From assembly GCF_003790525.1 (NCBI RefSeq), contig NZ_CP033635.1: 64,000 nucleotides of DNA; one strand, 5' to 3'. Below the pieces are notes generated by a model. That model was not told the DNA's origin, ran no database searches, and saw only the letters and a program-made list of their open reading frames with translations. Shown piece by piece: positions 9,892 through 26,704 of the stretch. This DNA is from Escherichia coli (lineage in GTDB: Bacteria > Pseudomonadota > Gammaproteobacteria > Enterobacterales > Enterobacteriaceae). The position numbers were made by a program, and so were the translations under genes. Position 1 is the first letter of the stretch; each line of letters opens with the position of its first letter.

Positions 9892-9923
9892 GTTGAGAAG
9901 TAATTTTTACCGGGAGGAAATTT

Positions 9924-11244: not shown

Positions 11245-11870
11245 GCGAAATTAATTACCAGGCACTGCGTGAGGCGGCGGAACGTGCAATTCCAGCAATG
11301 GAACGCCTGTTAATGTTGCCAGCTGATGATGATTTGTTAAGTGAACAGGAACTTAAAGATTACGGTGTGGATATTGATGCGCTCAACGCCTTCAAATTTC
11401 TGACCGGACCAGAAACCGTGCTGGCGCTGCTGGATGAACGGGAAAGAAACCAGCAATACATAAAACGCCGTGACCAGGAGAACGAGGATATTGCGCTAAC
11501 GGTAGGGAAGCTGCGCGTTGAGCTGGAAGCCGCAGAGAAGCGCATTGCAGAGCTGGAGGGTAATTTCACGGTGCTGGCAGTGGAGAATGCCTCAATGAAG
11601 CTGTTTATCAGGGGTTGTTGCTACGTGTTTGATGGTCAGCAGGATGAAATATCTGATGCGTATATCTGCGCAACAGACGGAGGGATGCCGCAAACCTCGA
11701 CTACAGATGCTTTCCTGGCTGATGTACGGGCGGTGGCGTTTAACGAGCTTCGCGCGGCGTTTGTCAGGCACGCAAAAGTTGCAGGACTGGATGATGCCGA
11801 TACCGTAACGCTTAAGGAAGTGACAGAAGCATTGTTGCATTGTGCGGAACAGATTCGCGCGCCTGAATAA
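11241..11870 (+). CDS. Ea22-like protein, paralog 2
   Basis: GTG start after AAGGAGG, overlapping the previous stop. It shares [25 protein letters not shown] and TDAFLA.VRA with paralog 1. Confidence 0.75.
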   Translation: MSEINYQALREAAERAIPAMERLLMLPADDDLLSEQELKDYGVDIDALNAFKFLTGPETVLALLDERERNQQYIKRRDQENEDIALTVGKLRVELEAAEKRIAELEGNFTVLAVENASMKLFIRGCCYVFDGQQDEISDAYICATDGGMPQTSTTDAFLADVRAVAFNELRAAFVRHAKVAGLDDADTVTLKEVTEALLHCAEQIRAPE

Positions 11871-11965
11871 TTAAATTTAGTGTTGTAAATAAAATTTAAT
11901 CCTTAACCGGAGGGATTTCTGCACCTTCAGAACAGCAGGAGGCCACCCGAAAGGGCGGTAGTGAA

Positions 11966-12148
11966 ATGCGAAAGTTCAAAATAATTATTGAAACTGGAAT
12001 AGCTGGTGGAGATTTTGAGGATGTATTCGAAGTGGACGATGACGCAACACCTGATGAAATTCATGACGAAGCAAAAGAAATTTTCTTTAACTACTGCAAT
12101 TACTCATATCACGAAATAAAAGACGAAGAGGAAGAACAAAATGGCTGA
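11966..12148 (+). CDS. Small acidic hypothetical protein (60 aa)
   Basis: ORF in operon orientation. Its stop overlaps the next small ORF. Confidence 0.5.
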   Translation: MRKFKIIIETGIAGGDFEDVFEVDDDATPDEIHDEAKEIFFNYCNYSYHEIKDEEEEQNG

Positions 12149-12317
12149 TTTTGGTTCAACTAAATACAACGTCAGTTTTGAAGAATGGCATGAACTGTTA
12201 ATGGATTATGCAGAGTTACGTGGTGGAAGTGCTGCTGATGCTGAAGCCTGGCGTGATGACTACGAAGCAGGAAAAACTCCGGTCGAAGCATATTGTGATG
12301 AGTGGGGCGATGAATGA
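12141..12317 (+). CDS. Small hypothetical protein (58 aa, below the ORF-track cut-off)
   Basis: MADFGSTKYNVSFEEWHELLMDYAELRGGSAADAEAWRDDYEAGKTPVEAYCDEWGDE. It overlaps the upstream ORF by 8 nt, and its stop overlaps the next start in ATGA, which suggests translational coupling. Confidence 0.45.
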   Translation: MADFGSTKYNVSFEEWHELLMDYAELRGGSAADAEAWRDDYEAGKTPVEAYCDEWGDE

Positions 12318-12829
12318 GCGAGATTAATTATCAGGAAGGGCATGAAATGGCAGGGCAGGCAAAACCAGTTGCATGGCGATATCGCTACGTGAAAAAAGGC
12401 GTTACGGACTTTCAGGAGAAGATGTGGGTTGGTGACTGGAAATATGTACCGACAAAAGAGGATTGCAACGACAGGCCGAGCTATGAGATTCAGGCCTTAT
12501 TCACTGCCCCGTCAGTCCCGGTGACATCAGAAGGACTGGTTAAAGCCGTGCGCTTTTATGAACAGGTAAAGCGTGAGAATCCACCAGTCGAAACAGGAGC
12601 ATGGAAAGATGCTGTTGATTGGGTGCTCAAAGAGGCCTGCTGTGCTGTCATTCTGAGTAAAGCCGACAATCCACTGGCATCCAGTAATCAGGTTGGCGAA
12701 TTAACAATGTGGGTTAAACGACTGGTCAGTCAACTGAAAAAAGCTCAGCCGGACTGCAAATTACCGGAGAAGGCGATGGATTACCTGAAACGAAATGGAC
12801 TGATAAGCGCGGAGGATATTTTACGATGA
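12314..12829 (+). CDS. Hypothetical protein with Ea22-type N-terminus (paralog 3, diverged)
   Basis: 171 aa beginning MSEINYQEG. The remainder is unrelated to paralogs 1 and 2. Confidence 0.7.
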   Translation: MSEINYQEGHEMAGQAKPVAWRYRYVKKGVTDFQEKMWVGDWKYVPTKEDCNDRPSYEIQALFTAPSVPVTSEGLVKAVRFYEQVKRENPPVETGAWKDAVDWVLKEACCAVILSKADNPLASSNQVGELTMWVKRLVSQLKKAQPDCKLPEKAMDYLKRNGLISAEDILR

Positions 12830-12914
12830 CCTGGCCTGAAGCATTCACAACGGCAGGAATTGCAATGGCGGAGGCGCTGGTGATGTATTCTATTTGCGGT
12901 TGGGGATAAATCGT

Positions 12915-12958
12915 TGAAAAAAGCTCCCGACACAAACATGAGTCGGGAGCTTTGATTT
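12915..12958. terminator. Bidirectional rho-independent terminator
   Basis: 11-bp stem AAGCTCCCGAC/GTCGGGAGCTT flanked by A6 on the left and a T-rich run on the right. It lies between convergent genes (the Ea22-like block and parE). Confidence 0.65.
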
Positions 12959-13033
12959 ATATGGCTTACGAATCCGCCAGCAAGAGAGCGGGCGGACATT
13001 TTATTCTAACACCGGAATTCTGTGGGGACAAGT

Positions 13034-13333
13034 TTATAAGAAATCGGTTTCATAACTTTGTCCGCCATGATAAACACCTGCGATAAAGACTTTATTGTCA
13101 TCAACGGCAAAAGCAATAATCGTTCTGTGGCGGAAATGAGTTACCCGCATCCCCTGGCGAATATCATCGCGTTTATTGCCCCGATGCGGAAATGCAGAAA
13201 ACCCATCAAGATAATCAAGAAGCGCATTGGCATAATTGTCAGCAATGACGCCTCCTGCTTTCTCCGTTATATATCTGTGCAGGTTTATTATCTGCTGTTC
13301 GGCCTCGGGGGTAATGATGACTTCAAATGTCAT
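13034..13333 (-). CDS. parE: ParE/RelE-family toxin
   Basis: 99 aa, MTFEVIITPEAEQQIINLHRYI...FPHRGNKRDDIRQGMRVTHFRHRTIIAF, which is a typical ParE pattern. It lies 5 nt downstream of the antitoxin gene. Confidence 0.9.
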   Translation of the reverse strand: MTFEVIITPEAEQQIINLHRYITEKAGGVIADNYANALLDYLDGFSAFPHRGNKRDDIRQGMRVTHFRHRTIIAFAVDDNKVFIAGVYHGGQSYETDFL

Positions 13334-13338
13334 GCAGA

Positions 13339-13596
13339 CTACTTCCCGGATCTAATCGCGGCGCGAACCTGTGAAATGGAGCGTCCGTTGTTTGGGTTTT
13401 CGCGGATAGAATCAAGAGAGGGGGCGACTGAATGCGTTAACCACGCTTCGATTGCTTTATCGCGCTCATTCAGTGCGCGAAGCCCTTCACGAATGACCTC
13501 GCTTTCTGAAGCATAGGCACCGGAAGCCACACGGGAGCGCACCATGTCAGCCATCTCGTTAGTTAATGTAATACTGAATTGTTGGGTTGTACGCAT
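13339..13596 (-). CDS. parD: ParD/CopG-type (RHH) antitoxin
   Basis: 85 aa from the internal Met (MRTTQQFSITLTNEMADMVRSRVASGAYASESEVIREGLRAL). This is a ribbon-helix-helix N-terminus. Confidence 0.85.
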   Translation of the reverse strand: MRTTQQFSITLTNEMADMVRSRVASGAYASESEVIREGLRALNERDKAIEAWLTHSVAPSLDSIRENPNNGRSISQVRAAIRSGK

Positions 13597-13731
13597 GGTA
13601 AACCTCACGGAGTAGGATAGAACACCATTCGATGATAGCACGCTGCCTGTTGACGACAACAGAAATCAGAGACAATATTGCCTCCAGCCAGCCTGAACAA
13701 CTGGCACCTGCTGCGCCAGCAGAGACAACGG

Positions 13732-14010
13732 ATGGCGCACGATACCAGATTACACAATTCTGATAATCTCGCCGTCTTTGCCAGCAGGCACGGGCGGCAT
13801 TCACACGCATTCAAATCTGACTGGTTCCGGCATGATCCATGTACTGAAGAACAGGCAGAGTGGCTAATTCAGAACTACCGCAGACGTGGTTACGAGTTTC
13901 AGAAAGACCTAAGTCTTGACCGCCTGTACTGGATCATCTCCGTCAGGCTCCCTTATTCCGAACGCCCACCGCGTCCATCCCGCACGTACCAGCAACGGAT
14001 CTGGAGGTAA
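13732..14010 (+). CDS. Hypothetical protein (92 aa)
   Basis: ORF from MAHDTRLH. Its 3' end contains the GGAGG that serves the next gene. No motif recognised. Confidence 0.45.
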   Translation: MAHDTRLHNSDNLAVFASRHGRHSHAFKSDWFRHDPCTEEQAEWLIQNYRRRGYEFQKDLSLDRLYWIISVRLPYSERPPRPSRTYQQRIWR

Positions 14011-14011
14011 C

Positions 14012-15064
14012 GTGAGGGTATTAGTGACACCTGAAATTGCTCACCGTCTGGGGATTGTACTTTTCAGACCCGGTCCTGATGCGATGCCTTTGTTTATGCA
14101 GGGGCGTGTGCTGGTGGAGCCTGAACCGAAAAGCATGCGCGGTCTGCCGTCCGGAGTCGTTCCTGCCGTTCGCCAGCCGTTGGCGGAAGATAAATCATTA
14201 CTCCCATTTTTCAGCAATGAGCGTGTGATTCGTGCTGCCGGCGGCGCTGGTGCACTGTCTGACTGGCTGTTGCGTCATGTCAAATCCTGCCAGTGGCCTC
14301 ATGGTGACTATCATCACAGTGAAACCGTCATACATCGTTACGGTACCGGAGCGATGGTGTTGTGCTGGCACTGCGACAACCAGCTGCGTGACCAGACATC
14401 CGAATCACTTGAGCAACTTGCTCAACAAAACCAGGCAGAATGGATGATTGACGTCATACGCCATGCAATGAACGGCACGCAGGAGCGGGAATTATCGCTG
14501 GCTGAATTATGCTGGTGGGCGGTGTGCAATCAGGTGACGGATGCACTACCCGAGACAGTATTGAGTCGTTCGATGGGATTACCTGCGGAAAAAATACGCT
14601 CTGTATACCGCGAAAGCGACATCATACCAGGAGAAAAGACCGCCACCAGCATACTGAAACAGCGCACAAAAAATCTTGTGCTGCCGACCCACCAGCAACA
14701 GAACCGACCACAGGAAAATAAGGTGGTCACCCTTACCGTTGATCCCGATTCTCCGGCTCAGTATCTCCGGCGCCAGAAACCACAACGGGAAGAGATGCCC
14801 GTATACACGCGCTGGGTAAAAACGCAGAAATGCATGACGTGTGGCAATCAGGCAGATGATCCGCATCACATCATTGGTCATGGACTGGGAGGGATGGGAA
14901 CAAAGGCTGACGATTTATTTGTTATTCCGCTGTGTCGTAAATGCCACAACGAACTGCATGCCGGGGTAAAAGAATTTGAAGAAAAACACGGCAGCCAGCT
15001 GTTGTTGTTGATTTGTTTTTTAATGCACGCGAAAAATTCGGGCGTCCTGAAGTGGAATGCATAA
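14012..15064 (+). CDS. DUF968 (YdfU-like) protein with C-terminal HNH-like Cys/His motif
   Basis: GTG start 4 nt after GGAGG. The C-terminus is CMTCGNQADDPHHIIGHGLGGMGTKADDLFVIPLCRKCHNELH. Confidence 0.8.
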   Translation: MRVLVTPEIAHRLGIVLFRPGPDAMPLFMQGRVLVEPEPKSMRGLPSGVVPAVRQPLAEDKSLLPFFSNERVIRAAGGAGALSDWLLRHVKSCQWPHGDYHHSETVIHRYGTGAMVLCWHCDNQLRDQTSESLEQLAQQNQAEWMIDVIRHAMNGTQERELSLAELCWWAVCNQVTDALPETVLSRSMGLPAEKIRSVYRESDIIPGEKTATSILKQRTKNLVLPTHQQQNRPQENKVVTLTVDPDSPAQYLRRQKPQREEMPVYTRWVKTQKCMTCGNQADDPHHIIGHGLGGMGTKADDLFVIPLCRKCHNELHAGVKEFEEKHGSQLLLLICFLMHAKNSGVLKWNA

Positions 15065-15430
15065 ATGACTGAACACATAGAATTTGTTTTGCCTTACCCG
15101 CCAACGGTGAATACTTACTGGCGACGTCGTGGCAGCACATATTTTGTATCAAAAGTCGGTGAACGTTATCGCCGGGATGTGGCGTTAATTGTTCGCCAAC
15201 AGCGGTTGAAATTAAACCTGTCCGGAAGGCTGGCAATAAAAATTATTGCAGAGCCACCGGATAAGCGCCGCCGCGACCTGGACAATATCCTGAAGGCACC
15301 ACTGGATGCACTGACGCATGCCGGACTATTCATAGACGACGAGCAGTTTGATGAAATTAATATTGTGCGCGGTCAGCCCGTTCCTGGTGGGCGGCTGGGG
15401 ATAAAAATCACAGAACTGGAGTGCGCATGA
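15065..15430 (+). CDS. rusA: Holliday junction resolvase RusA
   Basis: 121 aa, with FVLPYPPTVNTYWRRRG ... DLDNILKAPLDALTHAGLFIDDEQ. Confidence 0.95.
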   Translation: MTEHIEFVLPYPPTVNTYWRRRGSTYFVSKVGERYRRDVALIVRQQRLKLNLSGRLAIKIIAEPPDKRRRDLDNILKAPLDALTHAGLFIDDEQFDEINIVRGQPVPGGRLGIKITELECA

Positions 15431-16095
15431 ATAACCAGTATTTACAGTTTGTGCGTGAGCAGCTCATTATCGCCACCGCTGATTTGAGTGGGGCAACAAA
15501 AGGTCAGCTTGAAGCCTGGCAGGAGAATGCCATGTTCGATACAGGGCGTTACAGGCGTAAAAAAATCCGGTACCGCGATGAAGTGACTGGAAAAATGATA
15601 ACGCGGGATAATCCACCAATCCCGGGAAAACAATCGCTGGCGAAAGGCTCATCAATTGCCCTGGTCAGCCCGGTTGAGTTTTCGACATCATCATGGCGGC
15701 GGGCGGTTCTGTCTATTGAAGAACATCAGAAAGCCTGGTTGTTGTGGTGTTACAGCGGGAGTATTTGCTGGGAGTATCAGGTCACTATAACCCACTGGGC
15801 ATGGGAAGAGTTTAAGGCCCATTGTGGCAACAGGAAAATTGCAGAGAAAACACGGGAACGCCTGAAAAAATTAATCTGGCTGGCGGCGCAGGCAGTAAAA
15901 GCAGAAATTTTTGGTAAGGAAGGTTACGAATACCAGGATCTGGCATTACTGGCGGGAGTGACAGCCAAAAACTGGTCCAAAACATTTACTGGTCACTGGA
16001 TTGCAATGAAACACATTTTTCACCGGCTGGATAGTGAGGCTTTATTGTTTGTGACGAGAACACGTTCAAAACAAAAGGCGGCATTTTCACAGTAA
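15427..16095 (+). CDS. Late-gene antiterminator Q
   Basis: 222 aa. The ATG overlaps the rusA stop (ATGA). It is the last gene before a strong promoter-plus-terminator pair, and its sequence is of the phage antitermination Q (QuuD/82-type) kind. Confidence 0.8.
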   Translation: MNNQYLQFVREQLIIATADLSGATKGQLEAWQENAMFDTGRYRRKKIRYRDEVTGKMITRDNPPIPGKQSLAKGSSIALVSPVEFSTSSWRRAVLSIEEHQKAWLLWCYSGSICWEYQVTITHWAWEEFKAHCGNRKIAEKTRERLKKLIWLAAQAVKAEIFGKEGYEYQDLALLAGVTAKNWSKTFTGHWIAMKHIFHRLDSEALLFVTRTRSKQKAAFSQ

Positions 16096-16099
16096 AGTA

Positions 16100-16128
16100 T
16101 TGCAAAAGTAGATTAAAAGGCATATATT
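16100..16128 (+). promoter_or_regulatory. Candidate late promoter PR'
   Basis: TTGCAA, then a 17-nt spacer, then TATATT, immediately downstream of Q. Confidence 0.5.
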
Positions 16129-16178
16129 TCGTGTGAATTTGATATTCTGCCGATTTTGTACGTAATGGCAAATCAAGC

Positions 16179-16206
16179 AAAACCCGCCGCCGAGTGGGTT
16201 TTTTTA
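16179..16206 (+). terminator. Candidate tR' terminator
   Basis: AAAACCCGC...GTGGGTTTT hairpin followed by a T7 run, about 50 nt downstream of the candidate PR'. Confidence 0.5.
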
Positions 16207-16345
16207 TACCTGAAAAAGACACAGAACATTAAATGTGATGGCTATTGTGCTATGAGTTTTTCCTGCTATGAAGCTTCTTGACTACATGGAGCTCCATTTG
16301 TTATGCAATATATTGTTATGTTTTTGAGTTGTTAATGGTGTTGCT

Positions 16346-17059
16346 ATGGATGACAGTACTCTGCTCAGGTACTCTTCACTTTTTGTTGCTTATATGGGAT
16401 GTCTTGGGTGGGGAAGCGCTTACTTTTATGGCTGGGGTACATCCTTTTATTATGGTTTCCCATGGTGGGTGGTTGGGGCTGGTGTCGATGATGTGGCCAG
16501 AAGCCTTTTTTATGCCGTTACAGTCATTGTTATATTCCTGATTGGGTGGGGAGTCGGTGTTGTTTTCTTCCTGGGGATCAAACAAAAAAATAATGTGCAG
16601 GATCTGAGTTTTATCAGACTTTTTCTGGCGATATTGTTGCTTTTTGTTCCGCCTGCTCTGGAGTTTTCAGTAATTCATCGACGCGTTGCGCTAGATGCAT
16701 TGGTTTTATGCGTTATTGCTGCCTTAATAATTACGGTTTTTGTCAGGTCAGGAAGAAGACTTATTTCAGTCAAATGTTTTTCGGAAATGTCTTTTATTCG
16801 TCATCACTGGATTGAGTGTATGATGGTCGGATTCATGATCTATTTCTGGGGATTTTCACTTATTGCCGGTTGGTACAAACCCCAGTTTAAGAAGGAATAT
16901 CAGATGCTCCACTATGATAGTGTCTGGTATTATGTTCTTGCACGCTATGATGACAGGCTGGTGTTGTCGAAATCGTACAGTAATGGGAGTTCTACATTCG
17001 TTATACTTAATAGCGGGCAGATTGATGACTTCGAAGTTAATGTAGTCAGAGTGCGTTAA
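16346..17059 (+). CDS. Polytopic membrane protein of unknown function (moron)
   Basis: 237-aa ORF with about five hydrophobic segments rich in aromatic residues and Gly, and a soluble C-terminal ~60 aa. It lies in an A/T-rich DNA island between tR' and the tRNA cluster. Confidence 0.65.
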   Translation: MDDSTLLRYSSLFVAYMGCLGWGSAYFYGWGTSFYYGFPWWVVGAGVDDVARSLFYAVTVIVIFLIGWGVGVVFFLGIKQKNNVQDLSFIRLFLAILLLFVPPALEFSVIHRRVALDALVLCVIAALIITVFVRSGRRLISVKCFSEMSFIRHHWIECMMVGFMIYFWGFSLIAGWYKPQFKKEYQMLHYDSVWYYVLARYDDRLVLSKSYSNGSSTFVILNSGQIDDFEVNVVRVR

Positions 17060-17181
17060 TATTGCCTGAGTAATTTTCTGTTGACCGCTCAAATTCTTTT
17101 ACCATGTGTAGGCCAATATGCAGGATTTAATCAGGGAAGGGTATTGCAGAGCAAAACTGGCATAAGTATTATTCCGCATAC

Positions 17182-17257
17182 GTCCCTTTAGCTCAGTGGT
17201 GAGAGCGAGCGACTCATAATCGCCAGGTCGCTGGTTCAAATCCAGCAAGGGCCACCA
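17182..17257 (+). tRNA. tRNA with CAT anticodon (Met or lysidine-modified Ile2 type)
   Basis: 76-nt cloverleaf with D stem GCTC/GAGC, anticodon loop CTCATAA, T arm GCTGG-TTCAAAT-CCAGC and an encoded CCA. There is one acceptor-stem mismatch (U2-C71). Confidence 0.85.
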
Positions 17258-17258
17258 A

Positions 17259-17335
17259 CCGCCACTAGCTCATCAGGAGAGAGCATCAGCCTTCTAAGCT
17301 GACTGTGCGGGGTTCGAGTCCCCGGTGGCGGTCCA
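17259..17335 (+). tRNA. tRNA-Arg (UCU)
   Basis: Perfect acceptor stem CCGCCAC/GTGGCGG, anticodon loop CTTCTAA, T arm CGGGG-TTCGAGT-CCCCG and an encoded CCA. Confidence 0.9.
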
Positions 17336-17337
17336 GC

Positions 17338-17410
17338 GCCGACTTACCTCAGTCGGCAGAACAGTTTAGTTGTAACCATCAGGCCACCACTTCAATTCCG
17401 GTAGTCGGCA
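17338..17410 (+). pseudogene. Decayed tRNA-Thr(UGU)-like sequence
   Basis: The acceptor stem GCCGACT/AGTCGGC is intact and the loop GTTGTAA is present. The D stem (CCTC/GAAC), anticodon stem (GTTTA/CCATC) and T stem (ACCAC/CCGGT) are largely unpaired, and there is no CCA. Confidence 0.5.
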
Positions 17411-17750
17411 CTAAATTTCCAGGCTCGTGCTCACGGCCTGCTTCATATCCGCGCCAGGTCCGTCGCGATTAAACCACAGGGCTTTTCAGGAGGGGCCACA
17501 GAGAGCGTCACACTGACCATTCCCTGTGGCTTGTGCTGAGATCCGGTCAGTGAAATTGTGCAAAGGGAATCTTCGGGAGCTTTGGGCAGAATGTCAGTTA
17601 TTGATGTTGACATCCTCCACACCCTGAAGGTCGGGGTTTTACGGCGCACTGGATAAAATACCTGAACAAACAGCCTCTTCGTGCGGCTTTTTTATAACGA
17701 GATTCTGACTTGCTGCCGTCCGTAATGTCGGATGGCGGAGGTGAGGGACT

Positions 17751-18023
17751 ATGAGAATGGACGAACGATACAGTAACGCTGCATACGGCAGCGCAGGACT
17801 TGTTGCGTTCTTTGCCAGCCTGTCACTGCAGGATTGGGGATTTATTATCGGCGTGGCGTTCAGTATCATTCTTGGTGTTCTTACTTATCGCCTTAACAAA
17901 CGGGAGCAGGAAAAACGAACCCGCATATTGCTCGAAATTCTGGAACGAACTAATGCCGGTAATGTTCCGGCTACGGCACATGCTGTGGCTGAGATTGCGA
18001 AAAAGGCACCAAAAGAAATATGA
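17751..18023 (+). CDS. Class II (two-TMD) holin, probable pinholin, with Met1-Arg2-Met3 dual-start motif
   Basis: 90 aa with two hydrophobic segments and a charged C-terminal tail. It is the first gene of the lysis cassette and follows GGAGGTGAGGG. Confidence 0.85.
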   Translation: MRMDERYSNAAYGSAGLVAFFASLSLQDWGFIIGVAFSIILGVLTYRLNKREQEKRTRILLEILERTNAGNVPATAHAVAEIAKKAPKEI

Positions 18024-18179
18024 CGAATATCCCGGGAGTGAGGGGATAATATACCTTTTAACAAAATCCGGGAACATGAAACGCCCGGAACGTTTCATGA
18101 GACATGCCCCGTGGGGAGCAGGGCATAACTGTGCGGAATAGCTTTCATTGTGATATCAATAATCACGGTATTCAAAATA

Positions 18180-18557
18180 TTACGGGCCTGTGGGATCAGG
18201 TTGTTTTTTGTCTGATTCCAGAGGGAAGGGACGCTGTTTCGGTTCTCTGAACTTTAGTGATAATGAATTGAAAATCCTCATTTTTTGCTGCCATGCATAA
18301 TGTCTGTCCCATGAACAGGGGGGGCTCAATTCTTCATTCACCCATGCGTTAATATCTTGTTTCAGGTGTTGAAGCATATGGGGTGTTAATGCACTCATAA
18401 TAATATCCAGCGTTTTATGCGAGAGTTTACCGTAAGGGTCTGCAAGGATGCTGCTCGTTGCTTCGTTATTATCCACCATAAGTGGAAGTAGCGCTGATTT
18501 AACTTTTTCTGTCATTAGTTGCAAAAATCTACTGCGCAAATTTTCTTTACTGTTCAT
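18180..18557 (-). CDS. Hypothetical protein encoded antisense between holin and endolysin (moron)
   Basis: 125-aa ORF on the opposite strand in an A/T-rich segment. It looks helical and has no recognised motif. Confidence 0.55.
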   Translation of the reverse strand: MNSKENLRSRFLQLMTEKVKSALLPLMVDNNEATSSILADPYGKLSHKTLDIIMSALTPHMLQHLKQDINAWVNEELSPPCSWDRHYAWQQKMRIFNSLSLKFREPKQRPFPLESDKKQPDPTGP

Positions 18558-18680
18558 TTCTGAAGCCTCATCTGTTGTCGTTTGGTTTTCCTGAACGGGT
18601 ATGTTTATGAGACATGCTGGTACTGGATTATATACCTGATATATCCAGGGCTATAAACCTTTAGATCCTGATAAATATAC

Positions 18681-19214
18681 ATGAACGCAAAAATCAGATA
18701 CGGCCTGTCGGCTGCCGTTCTGGCGCTGATTGGTGCTGGCGCATCTGCTCCTCAGATACTTGATCAGTTTCTGGACGAAAAAGAGGGTAACCACACAACG
18801 GCATACCGCGATGGTTCTGGCATATGGACCATCTGCCGCGGTGCCACGGTGGTGGATGGAAAACACGTTTTTCCCGGAATGAAGCTGTCGAAGGAAAAAT
18901 GCGCTCAGGTTAATGCCATTGAGCGTGATAAGGCGCTGGCATGGGTGGAGCGCAATATTAAAGTTCCACTGACCGAAGCACAGAAAGCGGGTATTGCGTC
19001 ATTCTGTCCCTATAACATTGGCCCCGGTAAGTGTTTCCCGTCGACGTTTTATAAGCGGCTTAATGCCGGTGATCGAAAAGGCGCCTGCGAGGCGATTCGC
19101 TGGTGGATAAAGGATGGTGGGCGCGATTGCCGCATACGTTCAAATAACTGCTATGGACAGGTTATTCGTCGTGACCAGGAAAGCGCATTAGCCTGTTGGG
19201 GGATAGATCAGTGA
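18681..19214 (+). CDS. SAR endolysin (GH24 lysozyme, P21 R type)
   Basis: The N-terminus is Gly/Ala-rich and weakly hydrophobic ([16 protein letters not shown]). The catalytic pattern is E-x8-D-x5-T ([16 protein letters not shown]). Confidence 0.92.
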
Positions 19215-19678
19215 GCAGAGTCGCCGCGATTATTTATGCTCTGGTTATCTGCATCATCGTCTGCCTGTCGTTGGCGGTCAATCATTACCGTGATAACGCC
19301 ATAGCCTACAAAGAACAGCGTGATAAAAAAGTCAGTGAACTGAAGCAGGCGACCGCCACCATTACTGACATGCAGCAGCGTCAGCGTGATGTTGCTGCGC
19401 TCGATGCAAAGTACTCGAGAGAATTAGCCAATGCGAAAGCTGAAAATGAAACTCTGCGCGCTGATGTTGCCGCTGGCCGTAAGCGCCTGCGGGTCAATGC
19501 CAGTTGCTCCGAAGCCGTGCGTGAAGCCACCGGACCCACCAGCGTGGATAATGCAACCAGCCCCCGACTGGCAGACACCGCTGAACGGGATTATTTCACC
19601 CTCAGAGAACGGTTGATGACGATGCAGAAGCAACTGGAAGGGGCACAGGAGTATATCCGCACTCAGTGCATTAAGTAG
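19211..19678 (+). CDS. Rz-like i-spanin
   Basis: The GTG start overlaps the endolysin stop (GTGA). It has an N-terminal TMD, then coiled-coil sequence, and contains the embedded Rz1 frame. Confidence 0.85.
19431..19616 (+). CDS. Rz1-like o-spanin lipoprotein (embedded in Rz, +1 frame)
   Basis: Lipobox LAVSAC followed by a Pro-rich mature peptide. It lies entirely within the Rz gene. Confidence 0.8.
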
Positions 19679-19701
19679 CCTTTTTGTTATCAGGAGAATG
19701 T

Positions 19702-19971
19702 ATGAAGAAATTACTGGTAACCGCAAAGCTCTTTAATGGAAGAATCCCGTTCCGGATTTTACAGCGTGGTCGTGTTCTGGCTGAAGGTACATTCAGTGGT
19801 AAATGCACGGAATGTTATTCACGAATATATGAAGTGGATGCCACGGATGAAGATATAATCGTTGAGTGTAATGCCGGGATTGTATCGGCCACATTGCTTC
19901 ATGGGCGAATTGAGTTGTCGCTGGAGGATGCGGCAAATGAATTACCAACTGGCAAAACTTTATCGCGGTAA
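19702..19971 (+). CDS. Hypothetical protein (89 aa)
   Basis: ATG preceded by AGGAG. It lies directly after Rz, and its 3' end overlaps the next ORF by 35 nt. Confidence 0.5.
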   Translation: MKKLLVTAKLFNGRIPFRILQRGRVLAEGTFSGKCTECYSRIYEVDATDEDIIVECNAGIVSATLLHGRIELSLEDAANELPTGKTLSR

Positions 19972-20137
19972 ACATTTCGCAGGGTATGGGATTGCAGTTA
20001 ATGGTGAGTTACTGGAGGGGCAGCTTTCCGCCAGGACAGAGTCACGCGGAGGCGAGCCACCAACAGTCACTGTGACTTTCAGACTGACAGCAGAACATAT
20101 CGAGAATCAGCCCGTCATTCAACTGAACAGGGTGTGA
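19937..20137 (+). CDS. Hypothetical protein (66 aa)
   Basis: ATG 9 nt after GGAGG (19923-19927), located inside the preceding ORF. Confidence 0.45.
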   Translation: MNYQLAKLYRGKHFAGYGIAVNGELLEGQLSARTESRGGEPPTVTVTFRLTAEHIENQPVIQLNRV

Positions 20138-20144
20138 GGTATTT

Positions 20145-20333
20145 ATGCCATCACGAATCCCACGTGCCTGCCGTAAGCGTGGATGCGCAGGTACAATCAC
20201 AGACAGTTCTGGTTACTGCGATAAACATCGTGTGCGACCGTGGTTGCTCGGTATCTTTGTCTCTCTTGGTAACTTATTTGTTCGAACCGGTTTACAACTT
20301 ACAGGATATAAACATGCAAGAAGAAGCAAATAA
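20145..20333 (+). pseudogene. N-terminal remnant of a phage HNH endonuclease
   Basis: MPSRIPRACRKRGCAGTITDSSGYCDKHR matches the characteristic N-terminus of HK97-type packaging-associated HNH endonucleases. The rest of the 62-aa ORF is unrelated and no HNH core is present. Confidence 0.45.
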
Positions 20334-20763
20334 AATTCTTGTTGATTTATTGACGAAGGCCAGCGATGGAATTGATTCCGCCATTGCATTCAGTCAGGCT
20401 CAGATTCCGGATGTTGTTCATCAGTTGCTGGTATGGAATATGGTTGATAGCCTGATTAAAACATTAATAGCCATTTCAACAATCCCTCTGGTTTTCTGGT
20501 TTATGAAGAAGCAGTGCCAAAGAGTTGAGACAGGTAAAATCGGTGATGAAGGATATTCATGGGAGAAGGGAAATCCCAAATACAGGCCGACAATGGTTTG
20601 GGATAGCAAAGGTGATATTAATCTTCTTATCGTGCCATTGGTTGGAGTTTTGACTATGTGGGGGATTTTTATTATTTGTGCAGTAACCAATATGACATGG
20701 TTAAAAATCTGGCTGGCACCTAAGTTATATCTAATCGAATACGCAGCATCACTAATTAAATAG
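20314..20763 (+). CDS. Hypothetical membrane protein (149 aa)
   Basis: Starts at MQEEANK and has two or three hydrophobic segments. It lies in A/T-rich DNA. Confidence 0.55.
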   Translation: MQEEANKILVDLLTKASDGIDSAIAFSQAQIPDVVHQLLVWNMVDSLIKTLIAISTIPLVFWFMKKQCQRVETGKIGDEGYSWEKGNPKYRPTMVWDSKGDINLLIVPLVGVLTMWGIFIICAVTNMTWLKIWLAPKLYLIEYAASLIK

Positions 20764-21194
20764 TCCATTACAAAAGCCATTCGCTACAGAGTGGCTTTGA
20801 TAATGGCTTATACCCTGTACGGGATAACTTAATTGATATCCCTTTTAACGGATAAAGGTATTCAAGCCTGACACATCATTCGCTATATAGTCGCCGTATT
20901 CCCGTATGAACAGAAACCGTAGCCCGACGGGGAACTCCTTCTGCGCGAGTGTGCGGGAATAATCAAAAACGATGTACACCGGGTTTTTACCGCGTTAATG
21001 ATTCGCGGGTTTATCCCTCATAGTCGCCTGTCCGGTGCGATGGTGGAAGAAACCGGAAGCTGTATTACAGAAAGTGCTACTACTGTATCCTGATGCGATG
21101 TATGTAATGTGAGTCAGATAATGGCACAGGATGTGGTGATGTGGCAGTCTGGAACACAGGATATATTGTCAGAATAAGACCCGTAGGAATAAAA

Positions 21195-21521
21195 ATGAAA
21201 AGACGCCTTTCACTACTTTTTCTGTTATCTGCCCTGGCAGTGGGATGCTCGCAGCAAAAAGCTGATGAGCCCCGGCAATTAGTGACGGTGTATCCACGAT
21301 ATCCGGAATATGCTGCAGCAAATTATATCAAGGGGCTGGTTGAGGTTAAGTTCGATATTGGTGCTGACGGGACTGTGACACGGATCGTTTTTCTCCGCTC
21401 AGAGCCTCATAATTTGTTTCGTGATGAAGTGGTGAAGGCCATGGCGAAATGGAGATTTGAAAAGAATAGTCCCCGTCAGGGAGTGAAGAGACAATTTATC
21501 TTTACGCCATCACGTCCCTGA
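21195..21521 (+). CDS. Lipoprotein consisting of a TonB C-terminal-type domain
   Basis: Lipobox LAVGC. The mature part, YPRYPEYAAANYIKGLVEVKFDIGADGTVTRIVFLRSEPHNLFRDEVVKAMAKWRF, fits the TonB_C pattern. Confidence 0.75.
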   Translation: MKRRLSLLFLLSALAVGCSQQKADEPRQLVTVYPRYPEYAAANYIKGLVEVKFDIGADGTVTRIVFLRSEPHNLFRDEVVKAMAKWRFEKNSPRQGVKRQFIFTPSRP

Positions 21522-21885
21522 TGCTTCCAGGTAGAGAGGGGCTGGAAGCAGGAGAAAAATGAAAGAGCCAGCGGTTATATTTTTGTCATGGCTGACGAGA
21601 AATGATGGAAGAAGGCGTTGTATGCCACACAACGCCTCACTGTTCATTTCTTCTTTTTCTCTGGTGTAACCCGATGAATAAGAGTTGCACTGGTTTCCGG
21701 TGAGATGGCGATATGCTCGGGCAAAGTATGCTGGCAGTTTTCCAACTGGTCAAAAATATCTGCTCTCGTCTGTTGCAATGCCTGCAGCATGCGGCGGCAA
21801 TGCGCCTTTGCTTTTGCTAACCATCTTTCCTTCCTCTATCAGTCGCTGCGTGAACTCATCATGGAATACCAGGTAAATGCGGATG

Positions 21886-22137
21886 TTATCGGTTTTGGCT
21901 ACGCAGCATAGTACAAAACGGACAGGTGCATCCCGGAATGGGGGAGGCGTCACATGTCCCTGTGATGGTTGTTCCGGGTAATGCACTGTGTGGGGCATAA
22001 AAATGTCCGATAATTTTACTTTCTACCGCAGTTAGTTGATTCGTTGGTCCTGGTAGCACATTGGGCGAGGGTTTAAATGCCAGGCAACTGAAGGATGATG
22101 TTGCAAGGGAGATAGCGAGAATATTTCTGATTTTCAT
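21886..22137 (-). CDS. Small secreted Cys-rich protein (83 aa)
   Basis: Starts at MKIRNILAISLATSSFSCLA (signal-peptide-like). The C-terminus is TGTCDASPIPGCTCPFCTML. It overlaps another minus-strand ORF, so the coding assignment is uncertain. Confidence 0.45.
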   Translation of the reverse strand: MKIRNILAISLATSSFSCLAFKPSPNVLPGPTNQLTAVESKIIGHFYAPHSALPGTTITGTCDASPIPGCTCPFCTMLRSQNR

Positions 22138-22261
22138 TTGATGATGCCTCTGTGTGAAATGACGGTAAACGACGCACTTGTGCCGGCACATAATAGCAAG
22201 CATCAGAATAGATCAGATTCGATTCTTGCTGTAAGTGATAATTATTCTCGTTTTTTCGGGT

Positions 22262-22476
22262 CCTTTCCGGCGATCCAACAGGTTACGGGGCGTCGACCTC
22301 GCGGGTTTTCGCTATTTATGAAAATTTTCCGGTTTAAGGCATTTCCGTTCTTCTTCGTCGTAACTTAATGTTTTTATTTAAAATACCCCCTGAAAAGAAA
22401 GGAAACGACAGGTGCTGAAAACGAGCTTTTGGGCCTCTGTCGTTTCCTTTCTCTGTTTTTGGCCGTGGAATGAACA
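22262..22476 (+). other. cos: Lambda-type cos site (cosQ-cosN-cosB)
   Basis: Near-identity to the remembered lambda termini: ...GGTCCTTTCCGGCGATCC.ACAGGTTACG / GGGCGTCGACCTCGCGGGTTTTCGCTATTTATGAAAATTTTCCGG... The cosN 12-mer is at 22288-22299. Confidence 0.85.
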
Positions 22477-23025
22477 ATGGAAGTCAACAAAAAGCAGCTG
22501 GCTGACATTTTCGGTGCGAGTATCCGTACCATTCAGAACTGGCAGGAGCAGGGAATGCCCGTTCTGCGAGGCGGTGGGAAGGGTAATGAGGTGCTTTATG
22601 ACTCTGCCGCCGTCATAAAATGGTATGCCGAAAGGGATGCTGAAATTGAGAACGAAAAGCTGCGCCGGGAGGTTGAAGAACTGCGGCAGGCCAGCGAGAC
22701 AGATCTGCAGCCCGGTACGATTGATTACGAACGCTACCGTCTCACAAAAGCACAGGCAGATGCGCAGGAACTGAAAAATGCTCGTGAAGAAGGGCTGGTT
22801 CTTGAAACGGAATTATTTACCTACATTTTTCAGCGAGTTGCGCAGAATATATCCGGGATCCTTGTTCGTGTTCCGCAGACACTGCAGCGTAAATACCCTG
22901 ATATATCACCAGCACATCTTGATGCTGTGAAAACTGAAATCGCGAAAGCATCCGATGTGGCTTCTGAATCAGGTGAGAATGTGTGGAGGTGGATTGATGA
23001 TTTCAGACGAGCTGAGGGCGGCTAA
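22477..23025 (+). CDS. nu1: Terminase small subunit Nu1
   Basis: The first ~90 aa are essentially identical to lambda Nu1 ([74 protein letters not shown]). Confidence 0.95.
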
Positions 23026-24925
23026 CTCTACAGGAGCGATAACGACTGGTCTCCTTGCGCTAAAAATTCCTGTACCCCTGACGACAGTTCAGTGGGCAGA
23101 TCAACATTATTACCTGCCGAAAGAGTCGTCTTACACACCAGGGCGGTGGGAAACATTGCCGTTTCAGGTTGCCATAATGAACAGTATGGGTAATGACCTG
23201 ATCCGCACTGTTAATCTGATTAAATCTGCCCGTGTTGGTTATACAAAAATGCTGTTGGGAGTGGAGGCTTATTTTATTGAGCATAAATCCCGCAACAGTC
23301 TGCTTTTTCAGCCCACGGACTCAGCTGCTGAAGATTTTATGAAATCTCATGTTGAGCCAACGATAAGGGATGTTCCTGCATTGCTGGAGCTGGCTCCATG
23401 GTTCGGAAGAAAACACCGCGATAATACGCTCACCCTGAAGCGTTTTTCCTCCGGTGTGGGGTTCTGGTGTCTGGGTGGTGCGGCAGCAAAAAACTACCGT
23501 GAAAAATCCGTGGATGTGGTCTGTTATGACGAGCTTTCCTCGTTCGAACCGGATGTTGAAAAAGAGGGCTCGCCAACCCTGCTGGGGGATAAGCGTATTG
23601 AGGGCTCTGTATGGCCAAAATCCATTCGCGGCTCGACGCCTAAAATCAAAGGCTCCTGCCAGATCGAAAAAGCCGCTAACGAGTCGGCACATTTCATGCG
23701 TTTTTATGTGCCCTGCCCGCACTGTGGGGAGGAGCAGTATCTGAAATTTGGCGATGAATCCACGCCTTTTGGCCTTAAATGGGAGAAGGAAAGCCCCGAA
23801 AGCGTTTTCTACCTTTGTGAGCATCATGGCTGTGTGATCCATCAGTCTGAGCTTGACCAGAGTAACGGGCGGTGGATCTGTGAAAACACGGGCATGTGGA
23901 CCCGTGACGGCCTGATGTTTTTCAGCGCCCGGGGTGATGAAATTCCGCCGCCGCGCTCCATCACTTTCCATATCTGGACGGCGTACAGTCCGTTCACCAC
24001 CTGGGTACAGATTGTCTATGACTGGCTGGATGCACTGAAAGATCCCAACGGCCTGAAAACCTTTGTGAACACCACGCTGGGCGAGACCTGGGAAGAGGCC
24101 GTGGGCGAAAAACTCGATCACCAGGTACTGATGGATAAGGTTGTGCGTTACACGGCGGCGGTGCCTGCCCGGGTGGTTTATCTGACGGCGGGCATTGACT
24201 CGCAGCGAAACCGTTTTGAGATGTATGTCTGGGGATGGGCTCCGGGAGAGGAAGCCTTTCTGGTGGATAAAATCATTATTATGGGGCGTCCCGATGAGGA
24301 AGAGACACTGTTACGTGTGGATGCAGCGATCAACAAAAAATACTGCCATGCAGACGGAACCGAAATGACCATTTCCCGTGTCTGCTGGGACATCGGGGGG
24401 ATCGATGGCGAAATCGTTTATCAGAGGTCAAAAAAACACGGTGTTTTCCGGGTGCTGCCGGTAAAAGGCGCATCTGTCTATGGCAAGCCGGTGATCACCA
24501 TGCCAAAAACCCGCAATCAGCGGGGCGTGTATCTGTGTGAAGTGGGCACGGACACCGCAAAAGAAATTCTCTATGCCCGTATGAAAGCCGCTCCCACGCC
24601 TGCGGATGAATCCACGTCGTATGCCATCCGTTTTCCTGATGATCCGGAGATTTTTTCGCAGACAGAGGCGCAGCAACTGGTCGCGGAAGAGCTTGTGGAG
24701 AAGTGGGAAAAAGGAAAGATGCGTCTGCTGTGGGATAACAAAAAGCGGCGTAACGAAGCGCTGGACTGCCTGGTGTATGCCTACGCGGCATTACGTGTGT
24801 CCGTGCAACGCTGGCAGCTTGATCTGGCTGTACTGGCAAAATCCCGGGAAGAAGAGACGACCCGGCCAACCCTTAAAGAACTGGCAGCGAAGCTGTCCGG
24901 AGGAGTGAATGGTTACAGTCGCTGA
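22997..24925 (+). CDS. A: Terminase large subunit gpA
   Basis: 642 aa from [10 protein letters not shown] (GGAGGTGG upstream). It is collinear with lambda gpA ([42 protein letters not shown]). Confidence 0.95.
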
Positions 24926-25115
24926 ACTGCAGGCGCTGCGTCAGGCGCGCCTTGATTTATTAACCGGTAAACGGGTGGTGTCTGTCCAGAAAGATGGTCG
25001 CAGAATTGAATATACGGCGGCTTCTCTGGATGAGCTTAACCGGGCGATCAATGATGCGGAGTCGGTACTGGGGACAACCCGACGTCGCCGTCGTCCGCTG
25101 GGAGTGAGGTTATGA
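24909..25115 (+). CDS. W: Head-tail connector protein gpW
   Basis: 68 aa. LLTGKRVVSVQKDGRRIEYTAASL matches lambda W. Confidence 0.9.
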   Translation: MVTVAELQALRQARLDLLTGKRVVSVQKDGRRIEYTAASLDELNRAINDAESVLGTTRRRRRPLGVRL

Positions 25116-26704
25116 AAAGAACGCCTGTCCTGATTGATGTGAACGGCGTTCCGCTTCGTGAGAGTCTCAGCTACAACGGGGGCGGCGCAGGATTTGGCGG
25201 GCAAATGGCGGAGTGGTTGCCACCGGCGCAGAGTGTCGATGCGGCCCTGCTGCCCGCGTTGCGTCTGGGGAATGCCCGGGCAGATGATCTGGTGCGCAAT
25301 AACGGAATAGCGGCTAATGCGGTGGCCCTGCATAAGGATCACATAGTCGGGCATATGTTTCTGATCAGCTACCGTCCGAACTGGCGCTGGCTGGGGATGC
25401 GGGAGACCGCAGCAAAAAGCTTTGTCGATGAGGTGGAGGCGGCCTGGTCGGAATACGCCGAAGGGATGTCTGGCGAGATCGACGTGGAAGGAAAACGCAC
25501 GTTCACGGAATTTATCCGGGAAGGCGTGGGCGTTCATGCGTTTAACGGCGAAATCTTTGTGCAGCCGGTCTGGGATGCGGAGACTACGCAGCTGTTTCGT
25601 ACGCGTTTTAAAGCCGTGAGTCCGAAACGGGTGGACACGCCAGGATACGGTTTGGGGAACCGCTTTCTGCGGGCCGGGGTGGAGGTCGATCGGCATGGAC
25701 GGGCCGTTGCGTACCATATCTGTGAGGATGATTTTCCGCTCTCTGGTAGTGGACGATGGGAACGGATCCCGCGTGAACTTCCCACCGGGCGTCCGGCCAT
25801 GCTGCATATTTTCGAGCCGGTTGAGGACGGGCAGACCCGTGGGGCTAATCAGTTTTACAGCGTCATGGAACGGCTGAAAATGCTCGATTCCCTGCAGGCA
25901 ACACAGCTTCAGTCAGCCATAGTGAAGGCGATGTATGCAGCGACGATTGAAAGTGAACTTGATACCGAAAAGGCCTTTGAATATATCGCCGGTGCGCCGC
26001 AGGGGCAGAAGGATAATCCGCTTATTAATATTCTGGAGAAGTTCTCCAGCTGGTATGACACGAATAACGTGACACTGGGCGGTGTCAAAATTCCGCACCT
26101 TTTCCCCGGTGATGATCTGAAACTACAGACTGCGCAGGATTCAGACAATGGATTTTCTGCGCTTGAACAGGCGCTGCTGCGGTATATCGCCGCCGGTCTT
26201 GGCGTTTCCTACGAACAGTTGTCCCGTGATTACTCGAAGGTCAGTTATTCAAGTGCCCGCGCCTCCGCCAATGAGTCGTGGCGCTATTTTATGGGGCGGC
26301 GAAAATTTATTGCGGCCCGGCTGGCCACGCAGATGTTTTCCTGCTGGCTGGAAGAGGCTCTTCTGCGGGGGATTATTCGTCCGCCACGGGCGCGTTTTGA
26401 TTTTTATCAGGCGCGTTCATCCTGGTCACGGGCAGAGTGGATTGGAGACGGAAGAATGGCCATTGACGGGCTCAAGGAGGTCCAGGAATCGGTGATGCGC
26501 ATTGAGGCCGGACTGAGCACGTATGAGAAAGAGCTGGCGCTGATGGGTGAGGATTATCAGGACATTTTCCGCCAGCAGGTCAGGGAATCTGCAGAGCGGG
26601 AAAAAGCCGGACTCTCACGTCCGGTGTGGATAGCGCAGGCGTATCAGCAGCAGATAGCGGCGAGTCGCAGGCCGGAAGAGGAGACAACACCACGTGAGAC
26701 GTAA
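25112..26704 (+). CDS. B: Portal protein gpB
   Basis: 530 aa in the lambda gene order (W-B-C), of lambda gpB size. Confidence 0.95.
   Translation: MKRTPVLIDVNGVPLRESLSYNGGGAGFGGQMAEWLPPAQSVDAALLPALRLGNARADDLVRNNGIAANAVALHKDHIVGHMFLISYRPNWRWLGMRETAAKSFVDEVEAAWSEYAEGMSGEIDVEGKRTFTEFIREGVGVHAFNGEIFVQPVWDAETTQLFRTRFKAVSPKRVDTPGYGLGNRFLRAGVEVDRHGRAVAYHICEDDFPLSGSGRWERIPRELPTGRPAMLHIFEPVEDGQTRGANQFYSVMERLKMLDSLQATQLQSAIVKAMYAATIESELDTEKAFEYIAGAPQGQKDNPLINILEKFSSWYDTNNVTLGGVKIPHLFPGDDLKLQTAQDSDNGFSALEQALLRYIAAGLGVSYEQLSRDYSKVSYSSARASANESWRYFMGRRKFIAARLATQMFSCWLEEALLRGIIRPPRARFDFYQARSSWSRAEWIGDGRMAIDGLKEVQESVMRIEAGLSTYEKELALMGEDYQDIFRQQVRESAEREKAGLSRPVWIAQAYQQQIAASRRPEEETTPRET

Follow-up and report, generated by a model that had tools for sequence, protein, structure and literature searches.

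The TonB-C gene and its product

The window analysed is a 64,000-nucleotide stretch of Escherichia coli DNA (assembly GCF_003790525.1, contig NZ_CP033635.1) covering a lambdoid prophage which is inserted in ompW, next to the trp operon. In an accessory stretch of lower GC content this prophage carries a gene coding for a small predicted lipoprotein with a TonB C-terminal domain, hereafter called the TonB-C gene and the TonB-C protein. The gene is real, intact, selected and very common, and its orthologue is expressed; the product belongs to the TonB family in structure and possibly acts as an exclusion lipoprotein of the Llp/Cor type. RefSeq contains the identical 327-bp coding sequence (CDS) under the name "TonB family protein", and the gene is already annotated in databases as coding for a TonB C-terminal-domain protein, with its function uncharacterised in the literature found.

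The product starts with a signal peptide (MKRRLSLLFLLSALAVGC) composed of a basic n-region, a hydrophobic core and the lipobox L-A-V-G-C, which is followed by the tether SQQKADE and then by the domain part running PRQLV...IFTPSRP (Table 1). The signal peptide (MKRR-LSLLFLLSALAV-G-C) fits the lipobox pattern [LVI][ASTVI][GAS]-C. A preliminary description of this DNA had proposed a 108-aa open reading frame (ORF) combining an LAVGC lipobox with a TonB_C-type domain, which was borne out by the ORF, its translation and the profile matches, and the residues quoted there (the lipobox, then YPRYPEYAAANYIKGLVEVKFDIGADGTVTRIVF...AMAKWRF) are all present. The mature protein is 91 residues long and corresponds to TonB 145-235. 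Cys18 is kept without exception by the E. coli alleles and by 11 diverse family members. The residue at position +2 of the mature protein is Ser19 here and S, T or A across the relatives, never Asp, so there is no Lol-avoidance signal and Lol-dependent sorting to the outer membrane is predicted.

Similarity to TonB in sequence and fold

The match of the product to the TonB C-terminal domain is far beyond chance. The Pfam profile TonB_C (PF03544), against which the preliminary description had suggested a search, matches residues 33-102 with E=2.6e-13 and 50.7 bits, above its gathering score of 24.6, and TIGR01352 (tonB_Cterm) scored 48.6 bits against a cut-off of 27.1. With the full-length TonB equivalogs NF008081-NF008084 the match was confined to the C-terminal ~85 model positions, and every equivalog cut-off failed (best score 66.8 bits, cut-off 265). 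Residues 24-103 align without gaps to residues 151-230 of the E. coli TonB chains in the PDB (E ~2e-14), query residue n being TonB residue n+127. The stretch of TonB covered in the alignments is 149-235 only, and since the ungapped alignment spans just the C-terminal domain, the N-terminal anchor of TonB and its Pro-rich spacer are absent, as had been claimed; seven residues (SQQKADE) lie between Cys18 and the domain, and there is no Pro-rich spacer that could span the periplasm.

Pro26 corresponds to TonB Pro153, the start of ordered TonB in the BtuB complex. The YP motif is kept (Y36 and P37, equivalent to TonB Y163 and P164), as are all five aromatics (F53, F75, W86, F88 and F103, equivalent to TonB F180, F202, W213, Y215 and F230) and the beta3 strand (residues 94-103), which in TonB pairs with Ton boxes. 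The YP motif, the aromatic positions and beta3 are invariant or nearly invariant across the family. The equivalent of TonB Q160 is Tyr in the window allele and Leu in the other E. coli allele; in TonB itself, Q160L is a functional suppressor of Ton-box mutants (PMC11658791).

The AlphaFold2 (AF2) model built on a 17-sequence alignment has a predicted local distance difference test (pLDDT) value of 88 overall and >=97 over the domain (residues 30-100); an earlier model, made from 6 near-identical sequences, reached a pLDDT of 54 and was discarded. In Foldseek comparisons the model superimposed on TonB bound to BtuB (2GSK_B) with a root-mean-square deviation (rmsd) of 0.9 A over 79 columns, a template modelling (TM) score of 0.93 and 40% identity, and on TonB bound to FhuA (2GRX_C) with an rmsd of 0.8 A over 74 columns, and it matched 1u07 with E=3.7e-8. 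Modelling thus supports the fold of receptor-bound TonB, alpha-beta-beta-alpha-beta. The BFVD viral structure library gave no match at E<=0.001.

Distribution, selection and expression

The module is found in named phages with 95.5% nucleotide identity and a protein that is 96% identical. In phage 21 (OL657228) it is CPT_21_73, "TonB C-terminal domain protein", located between bor and cos; in phage ev017 it is called [quoted passage not shown], and in prophage Perceval of strain LF82 "TonB fragment". Several ECOR phages also carry the module, and a second allele with 70% protein identity occurs in JLK-2012 and in Stx1a-converting phages. The window allele is present in 1220 and the second allele in 414 of the 5426 complete E. 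coli genomes (about 22% and 8%), and nearly all copies in E. coli genomes are annotated as an intact "TonB family protein". Among 50,697 phage records, 15 contain the gene. A 97%-identical gene fragment on a 418-bp contig of Modestobacter excelsi (L006) is almost certainly contamination.

The dN/dS ratio (nonsynonymous to synonymous substitutions) between the two E. coli alleles is 0.12 (dS 1.47, dN 0.18), and 0.11 for the domain alone; such values mean strong purifying selection, and the gene is no fragment in decay. The Perceval orthologue LF82_160, 96% identical, is transcribed in the LF82 lysogen 8-fold above the local prophage background (PMC9928086). According to megablast, phages lacking the gene share only positions 20800-21058 of this part of the window. 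Being an accessory module that is missing from related phages, with an orthologue transcribed in the Perceval lysogen, the TonB-C gene is in all likelihood a moron (lysogenic-conversion gene) of lambdoid prophages.

Phage 21 (OL657228, 21967-25416) and Perceval also harbour sitABCD, coding for a TonB-independent Fe/Mn importer, alongside the TonB-C gene, and in Perceval both are transcribed in the lysogen (PMC9928086). This linkage was considered as a general feature and rejected, as sitABCD is missing from the window prophage and from the 7 kb examined around the JLK-2012 copy.

A wider family of small TonB_C lipoproteins

When 1.84 billion representative proteins were searched exhaustively with a profile, 5357 matched at E<=1e-3; they were mostly TonBs and multi-domain proteins, with a distinct set of ~110-aa proteins sharing the architecture of the window protein at the top of the list. 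The lipobox-bearing members are P0037, P0039, P0040, P0042, P0043, P0049, P0059, P0096 and P0106; in P0103, P0105 and P0160 there are plain signal peptides instead. Neither Pfam nor NCBIfam contains a dedicated model for this lipoprotein group.

Several of the genes belong to prophages or phages. In a Sodalis prophage (L015) and in the Klebsiella phage ST13-OXA48phi12.4 the gene lies in the slot between the lysis and terminase genes, and in the P0037 clade, also of prophage origin, it is found between an Rz-like DUF2514 gene and HNH/terminase genes. Other members are chromosomal, namely those of Klebsiella and Raoultella beside lacZ-lacI, those of Erwinia, and one between ahpCF and a GST gene. 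P0059 is carried on a plasmid-like contig (L031), directly after the parM/stbB partition genes and two genes upstream of the QatA/QatB (Qat) anti-phage system. The existence of a family of ~110-aa TonB_C lipoproteins which is also chromosomal and plasmid-borne is new here. As the window protein is 45-49% identical to the chromosomal lipoproteins and 38-40% identical to E. coli TonB, these values indicate a captured member of the lipoprotein family, not a truncated host tonB.

Another uncharacterised class without the TonB anchor was noticed among the best profile matches: P0038, P0041, P0058 and P0074 contain 2-6 tandem TonB_C domains and are secreted or lipid-anchored.

Upstream region and Fur-like sites

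The non-coding DNA in front of the gene is specific to the module, and the hexamer GATAAT at 21117-21122 is conserved in both E. coli alleles. The other (JLK) allele has, at the place of the Fur-like sites described below, a perfect and intact palindrome, AGAATAAGACTTATTCT, of which the allele shared by the window and phage 21 keeps just one half, AGAATAAGA, a 13-nt deletion immediately after 21184 having removed the rest.

Upstream stretches of varied length (310, 130, up to 200 or 90 nt) were scored against the 19-bp Fur consensus; the maxima from shuffled sequences, taken from the 310-nt stretches, were 13-14/19. The JLK allele scored an ambiguous 13/19. In most relatives there are Fur-like sites of 14-17/19, all located 28-37 nt before the start codon: 17/19 in the Sodalis prophage, 16/19 in Klebsiella sp. 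and Erwinia typographi, 15-16/19 in the P0037 phage clade, 15/19 in four Raoultella and at the ahpC-linked chromosomal gene, and 14/19 for a Raoultella paralogue; the Klebsiella-phage clade scored 12-14/19. Prophage and chromosomal copies are alike in this respect (loci L007-L012, L014, L015, L023, L027, L112-L151), and several relatives have the exact 7-1-7 Fur motif TGATAATNATTATCA at -28 to -37.

Phages with the second E. coli allele also have the exact 7-1-7 motif in their cos region, ~460 nt beyond the TonB-C gene. It sits upstream of the small terminase gene and was rejected as a regulator of the TonB-C gene, to which it is unrelated, and it is a warning that AT-rich palindromes of this type can serve other roles. 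Fur control of the relatives is for that reason a strong prediction rather than a demonstration. In the window, the cos region has a Fur-like 7-1-7 palindrome with 2 mismatches at 22236-22250, ~230 nt before the small terminase gene; many JLK-type phages have this site without a mismatch (TGATAATTATTATCA; L106, 3787-3801), and it is probably a packaging or IHF-type site, not a Fur site. What is new here with regard to regulation is that most relatives have a candidate Fur site, the region of which the window allele has lost by the 13-nt deletion.

Prophage setting

The TonB-C gene lies between the lysis cassette and the terminase genes in every phage examined, which is the same accessory slot as that of bor, and it occupies this slot in four unrelated phage backbones. 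The gene shares the direction of the late operon, and on the + strand no terminator-like site was found before it or otherwise flanking it (nothing above shuffle expectation), so it would be expected to be transcribed late in lytic growth as well. No conserved partner gene was found: each of the two E. coli alleles is followed by small ORFs of its own, without similarity to those of the other, so the gene appears to act alone.

Two tRNA genes at 17182-17335 separate Q from the lysis genes and are placed like the tRNAs of phage 21; one has the anticodon CAT (Met according to ARAGORN, Ile according to RefSeq) and the other is Arg-TCT. The J gene (37982-41698), which codes for the central tail fibre, has tandem repeats at 40516-41175, consisting of 2.9 copies of a 174-bp unit and 2.4 copies of a 33-bp unit, which encode a repeated coiled-coil-like segment ahead of the Phage_Tail_Tip domain (PF09327). 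The prophage of TUM1886 is near-identical elsewhere but differs at the end of J. In the side tail fibre gene (window 42960-46111), whose N-terminal part is at 42960-43190, an IS256-family element (transposase 43264-44472, - strand) and an IS66-family transposase (44531-46111, - strand) interrupt the frame of the gene, and the tail fibre of the prophage is probably defective.

Three small ORFs follow J in the window (41698-42887), coding for proteins of 86 aa, 220 aa (phrog_425, "membrane associated protein") and 81 aa, an arrangement that resembles a split receptor-binding/exclusion locus. The last of them had been described as a Cor-like FhuA-blocking lipoprotein, and this stands in part. It is a lipoprotein and it matches phrog_1119 (Cor), weakly (E=8.6e-7), the unnamed phrog_27799 matching slightly better (E=1.7e-8); it has no Pfam match and no tblastn relative in the 50,697 phage records, and nothing was found that points to FhuA as its target. 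The cor gene normally lies downstream of J. In phage 21, which carries the TonB-C gene and a lambda-type J, no cor is annotated downstream of J (record 9000-26000 inspected), so the pairing of TonB-C with Cor is incidental to the window prophage. With this and the weakness of the Cor relation, the earlier idea of two devices aimed at one uptake pathway does not hold as a general property.

Table 1 Features of the TonB-C gene and of the surrounding prophage region, in window coordinates
Feature	Position	Strand	Basis or comment
Endolysin	18681-19214	+	ORF list; RefSeq "lysozyme"
Rz i-spanin	19196-19678	+	ORF list; RefSeq "lysis protein"
Rz1 o-spanin, embedded in Rz	19431-19616	+	ORF list
Module-specific upstream non-coding DNA	21059-21194	+	Allele alignment, megablast
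Remnant palindrome half AGAATAAGA	21171-21184	+	Allele alignment
Shine-Dalgarno AGGA, 6 nt before ATG	21185-21188	+	Direct reading; phage 21 annotates the same ribosome-binding site
Start codon ATG	21195	+	ORF reading
CDS of TonB_C lipoprotein, 108 aa + stop	21195-21521	+	ORF, translation, RefSeq, Pfam/NCBIfam/PDB matches
Lipoprotein signal peptide MKRRLSLLFLLSALAVGC, residues 1-18	21195-21248	+	Direct reading
Lipobox L-A-V-G-C	21234-21248	+	Cys18 is the predicted acylated residue 1 of the mature protein
Short tether SQQKADE, residues 19-25, from lipid anchor to domain	21249-21269	+	AF2 pLDDT 60-84
TonB C-terminal domain, residues 26-103 (TonB 153-230)	21270-21503	+	Ungapped alignment to 1u07, 2gsk, 2grx
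Terminase small subunit, nu1-like	22477-23025	+	ORF list, RefSeq
Terminase large subunit	22955-24925	+	ORF list, RefSeq
Cor-like lipoprotein, 81 aa, lipobox LVSGC, downstream of tail-tip genes	42642-42887	+	ORF

Possible function

The best-supported reading of the product, with a chance that we put somewhat below even, is that it is a TonB_C decoy tethered to the outer membrane which jams TonB-dependent uptake. Through the seven-residue tether, the whole TonB C-terminal domain would be kept close against the outer membrane on its periplasmic side, where the free beta3 edge of the domain could pair by beta-strand augmentation with the exposed Ton boxes of ligand-loaded TonB-dependent transporters (FhuA, FepA, CirA, BtuB and others) and of incoming group-B colicins. 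As the transmembrane anchor, the contact with ExbB/ExbD and the spacer are all absent, such a domain could not transmit force and would merely occupy the site of TonB, leaving a fraction of the transporters uncoupled. Colicins, microcins and phages that need TonB for entry, T1 and phi80 among them, would then get in less readily, at the cost of some loss in the uptake of siderophores and B12. Most relatives would turn the gene on through a Fur-type operator at the very time when the transporters are themselves derepressed, and with that operator lost the window allele may be transcribed in lysogens growing in rich medium, in addition to late lytic expression.

Ton-box binding and every phenotype in this scheme are what we infer, and the scheme is consistent with several published observations. 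Ton-box binding is mainly a matter of beta-augmentation, in which secondary structure matters more than side chains, and soluble TonB fragments bind FhuA with a dissociation constant (KD) of 20-200 nM (PMC11658791). According to the account given in PMC9841981 of the work of Howard et al. 2001, an overproduced periplasmic TonB domain inhibits iron import by TonB-dependent transporters in E. coli. The periplasmic side of FhuA, itself a TonB-dependent transporter, is where the phage outer-membrane lipoproteins Llp and Cor exert their effect (bioRxiv 10.64898/2026.03.26.714494). From the present data, the points in favour are the fold, the kept beta3 strand and aromatic positions, the Q160L parallel in the other E. 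coli allele, the family-wide lipobox with a non-Asp +2 residue, purifying selection, transcription of the Perceval copy, the slot shared with bor, and the Fur-like sites of relatives, which connect the gene with the iron/TonB regulon.

A number of observations speak against the decoy. The transporters are far more numerous than TonB, which means that a decoy would have to be made in quantity, and the sole expression figure, that of the Perceval copy, is 8-fold above the background of a repressed prophage. In front of the window gene a sigma-70 consensus scan of the + strand gave nothing above shuffle expectation, and the best Fur box of the window allele scored 11/19, equal to the shuffle mean, with 0 matches at <=3 mismatches. 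For the chromosomal members of Klebsiella, Raoultella and Erwinia it would seem self-defeating to answer iron starvation with a protein that blocks siderophore uptake, and the occurrence of Fur-like sites together with non-phage chromosomal loci in close relatives points to a role in iron starvation or TonB function rather than in phage exclusion only. As for the protein, the residue equivalent to TonB Q160 is not conserved in the family, and a short N-terminal strand in the AF2 model (residues 28-30) might fill the beta3 edge. None of the PADLOC defence models matched the TonB-C protein, the Cor-like protein or their neighbours, and no functional study of the TonB-C lipoprotein was found in the full-text literature.

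The decoy reading may also be extended to the whole family, which is a more doubtful proposition. Its members would then be ancestrally Fur-controlled outer-membrane decoys, repeatedly captured by phages and giving lysogens a generic protection against entry by way of Ton boxes. They would compete with TonB at all TonB-dependent transporters at once, so that exclusion would be receptor-independent and act at the level of the pathway, in a manner distinct from Cor/Llp, the excluded entrants being group-B colicins, siderophore-microcins and phages of the T1, phi80 or H8 type.

Since an inhibitor induced by iron starvation is hard to rationalise for the chromosomal members, a positive or tuning accessory of TonB-dependent uptake, in place of a blocker, is a serious rival, although on balance we hold it to be unlikely. 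The domain anchored in the outer membrane might hold extended Ton boxes for hand-off to scarce TonB, or it might pair with the TonB C-terminal domain and dock TonB at the outer membrane under iron starvation, and iron acquisition by the lysogen would be improved or re-prioritised. The Fur-like sites at -28 to -37 in most members, chromosomal ones included, would bring about co-induction with the transporters, and the mere existence of chromosomal members outside phages fits such a role. All five aromatic positions are conserved, and changing these positions to Cys in TonB gives TonB-TonB disulfide dimers in vivo. Phage 21 and Perceval supply a further argument with their sitABCD genes, expressed in lysogens, but this linkage is missing from the window prophage and from the stretch examined in the Stx1a/JLK-type phages, and the window allele has lost the Fur-like site. 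In addition, an unenergised TonB domain is not known to assist transport by any mechanism, and the sole experimental precedent, the periplasmic TonB fragments as summarised in PMC9841981, was inhibitory. We give still less credence to an envelope lipoprotein in which the TonB_C fold binds another ligand, such as peptidoglycan or another outer-membrane protein, and which serves envelope robustness, serum resistance or virulence in the way of Bor. The gene shares the accessory slot of bor and is adjacent to it in phage 21, and the Klebsiella/Raoultella gene adjoins two small predicted periplasmic/envelope ORFs, Spy/CpxP-like and glycine-zipper-like as judged by eye from their translations. The TonB C-terminal domain has been reported to have peptidoglycan affinity, and lower-ranked Foldseek matches illustrate that TonB_C and TolA-III folds serve varied protein-protein contacts. 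On the other hand, the residues and the strand that pair with Ton boxes are the most conserved part of the protein, the Fur-like sites favour a link to iron or TonB, and there is no positive evidence for any alternative ligand.

Two further explanations are essentially excluded. The position of the gene downstream of the lysis cassette, in the late operon, and a match to phrog_1267, "Rz-like spanin" in the PHROG lysis category (E=2.1e-40), would suit a spanin-like lipoprotein assisting lysis, which we consider very improbable. The prophage has its own Rz with an embedded Rz1, and the product is a globular TonB_C domain rather than a short Pro-rich o-spanin and has no i-spanin partner, so the phrog_1267 label is most likely a misnomer carried over from the position of the gene. 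Moreover, family members on chromosomes and on a plasmid-like contig occur without any lysis genes, and the Perceval copy is transcribed in lysogens. Slightly less probable again is a non-functional remnant of a captured host tonB, which is what the database names "Partial tonB-like membrane protein" and "TonB fragment" suggest. The dN/dS of 0.12 across alleles, with saturated dS, the intact frame in ~1600 genome copies, the transcription of the Perceval copy and a purpose-built lipoprotein signal kept family-wide all contradict it, as does the greater closeness of the protein to the chromosomal lipoproteins (45-49%) than to E. coli TonB (38-40%).

Iron enters the cell mainly by way of TonB-dependent transporters, and the same transporters admit many colicins, microcins, phages and siderophore-antibiotic conjugates. 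If the decoy reading is true, the TonB-C protein would represent a new pathway-level mechanism of exclusion or tolerance, which could affect susceptibility to colicins and phages, and possibly the uptake of "Trojan-horse" antibiotics, in ~30% of E. coli, and nature would thereby have shown that the contact between TonB and the Ton box can in principle be targeted. If the protein helps uptake instead, the Ton system would have a component that has so far escaped recognition.

Comparison with known systems

The closest characterised likeness of the domain is E. coli TonB (P02929), residues ~150-239 of which (1U07, 1XX3, 2GSK, 2GRX) have the same Pfam domain and the same fold, with 38-40% identity and an rmsd of 0.8-1.4 A. 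Unlike TonB, the window protein lacks a transmembrane anchor, coupling to ExbB/ExbD and a Pro-rich spacer; a lipid anchor in the opposite (outer) membrane is predicted, and Tyr or Leu replaces Q160. Another close parallel is found in the engineered fragments of Howard, Herrmann, Stratilo and Braun 2001 (J Bacteriol 183:5885), in which the TonB C-terminal region without its anchor was sent to the periplasm by a signal peptide and, as reported in PMC9841981, inhibited FhuA- and FecA-dependent transport. The mature phage protein, with its 91 residues, is about the size of the 92-residue TonB fragment crystallised as 1U07. The engineered fragments were artificial, soluble and overproduced, whereas the phage protein is natural, lipid-anchored by prediction and 38-40% identical to TonB.

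Like Llp of T5 and Cor of phi80, N15, HK022 and mEp167, the TonB-C protein is a small phage-encoded lipoprotein with a putative location in the inner leaflet of the outer membrane. It differs from them in having a TonB_C fold and no Cor PHROG among its matches, and in being encoded in the slot between lysis and terminase genes, not beside the receptor-binding tail genes. Furthermore, Llp is FhuA-specific and allosteric, whereas a decoy built from a TonB domain would act on all Ton boxes alike.

With the ~110-aa lipoproteins of Klebsiella, Raoultella, Erwinia and Sodalis the window protein shares its architecture and lipobox at 36-49% identity. Most of these relatives have a Fur-like site upstream and some are chromosomal, whereas the window allele is prophage-borne and lacks the site. 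Finally, the gene resembles bor/iss of lambda in being a probable outer-membrane lipoprotein moron, transcribed in a lysogen in the case of the Perceval copy and located in the accessory slot between lysis genes and cos, the two being adjacent in phage 21; the proteins are unrelated in sequence and fold, and bor runs on the other strand.

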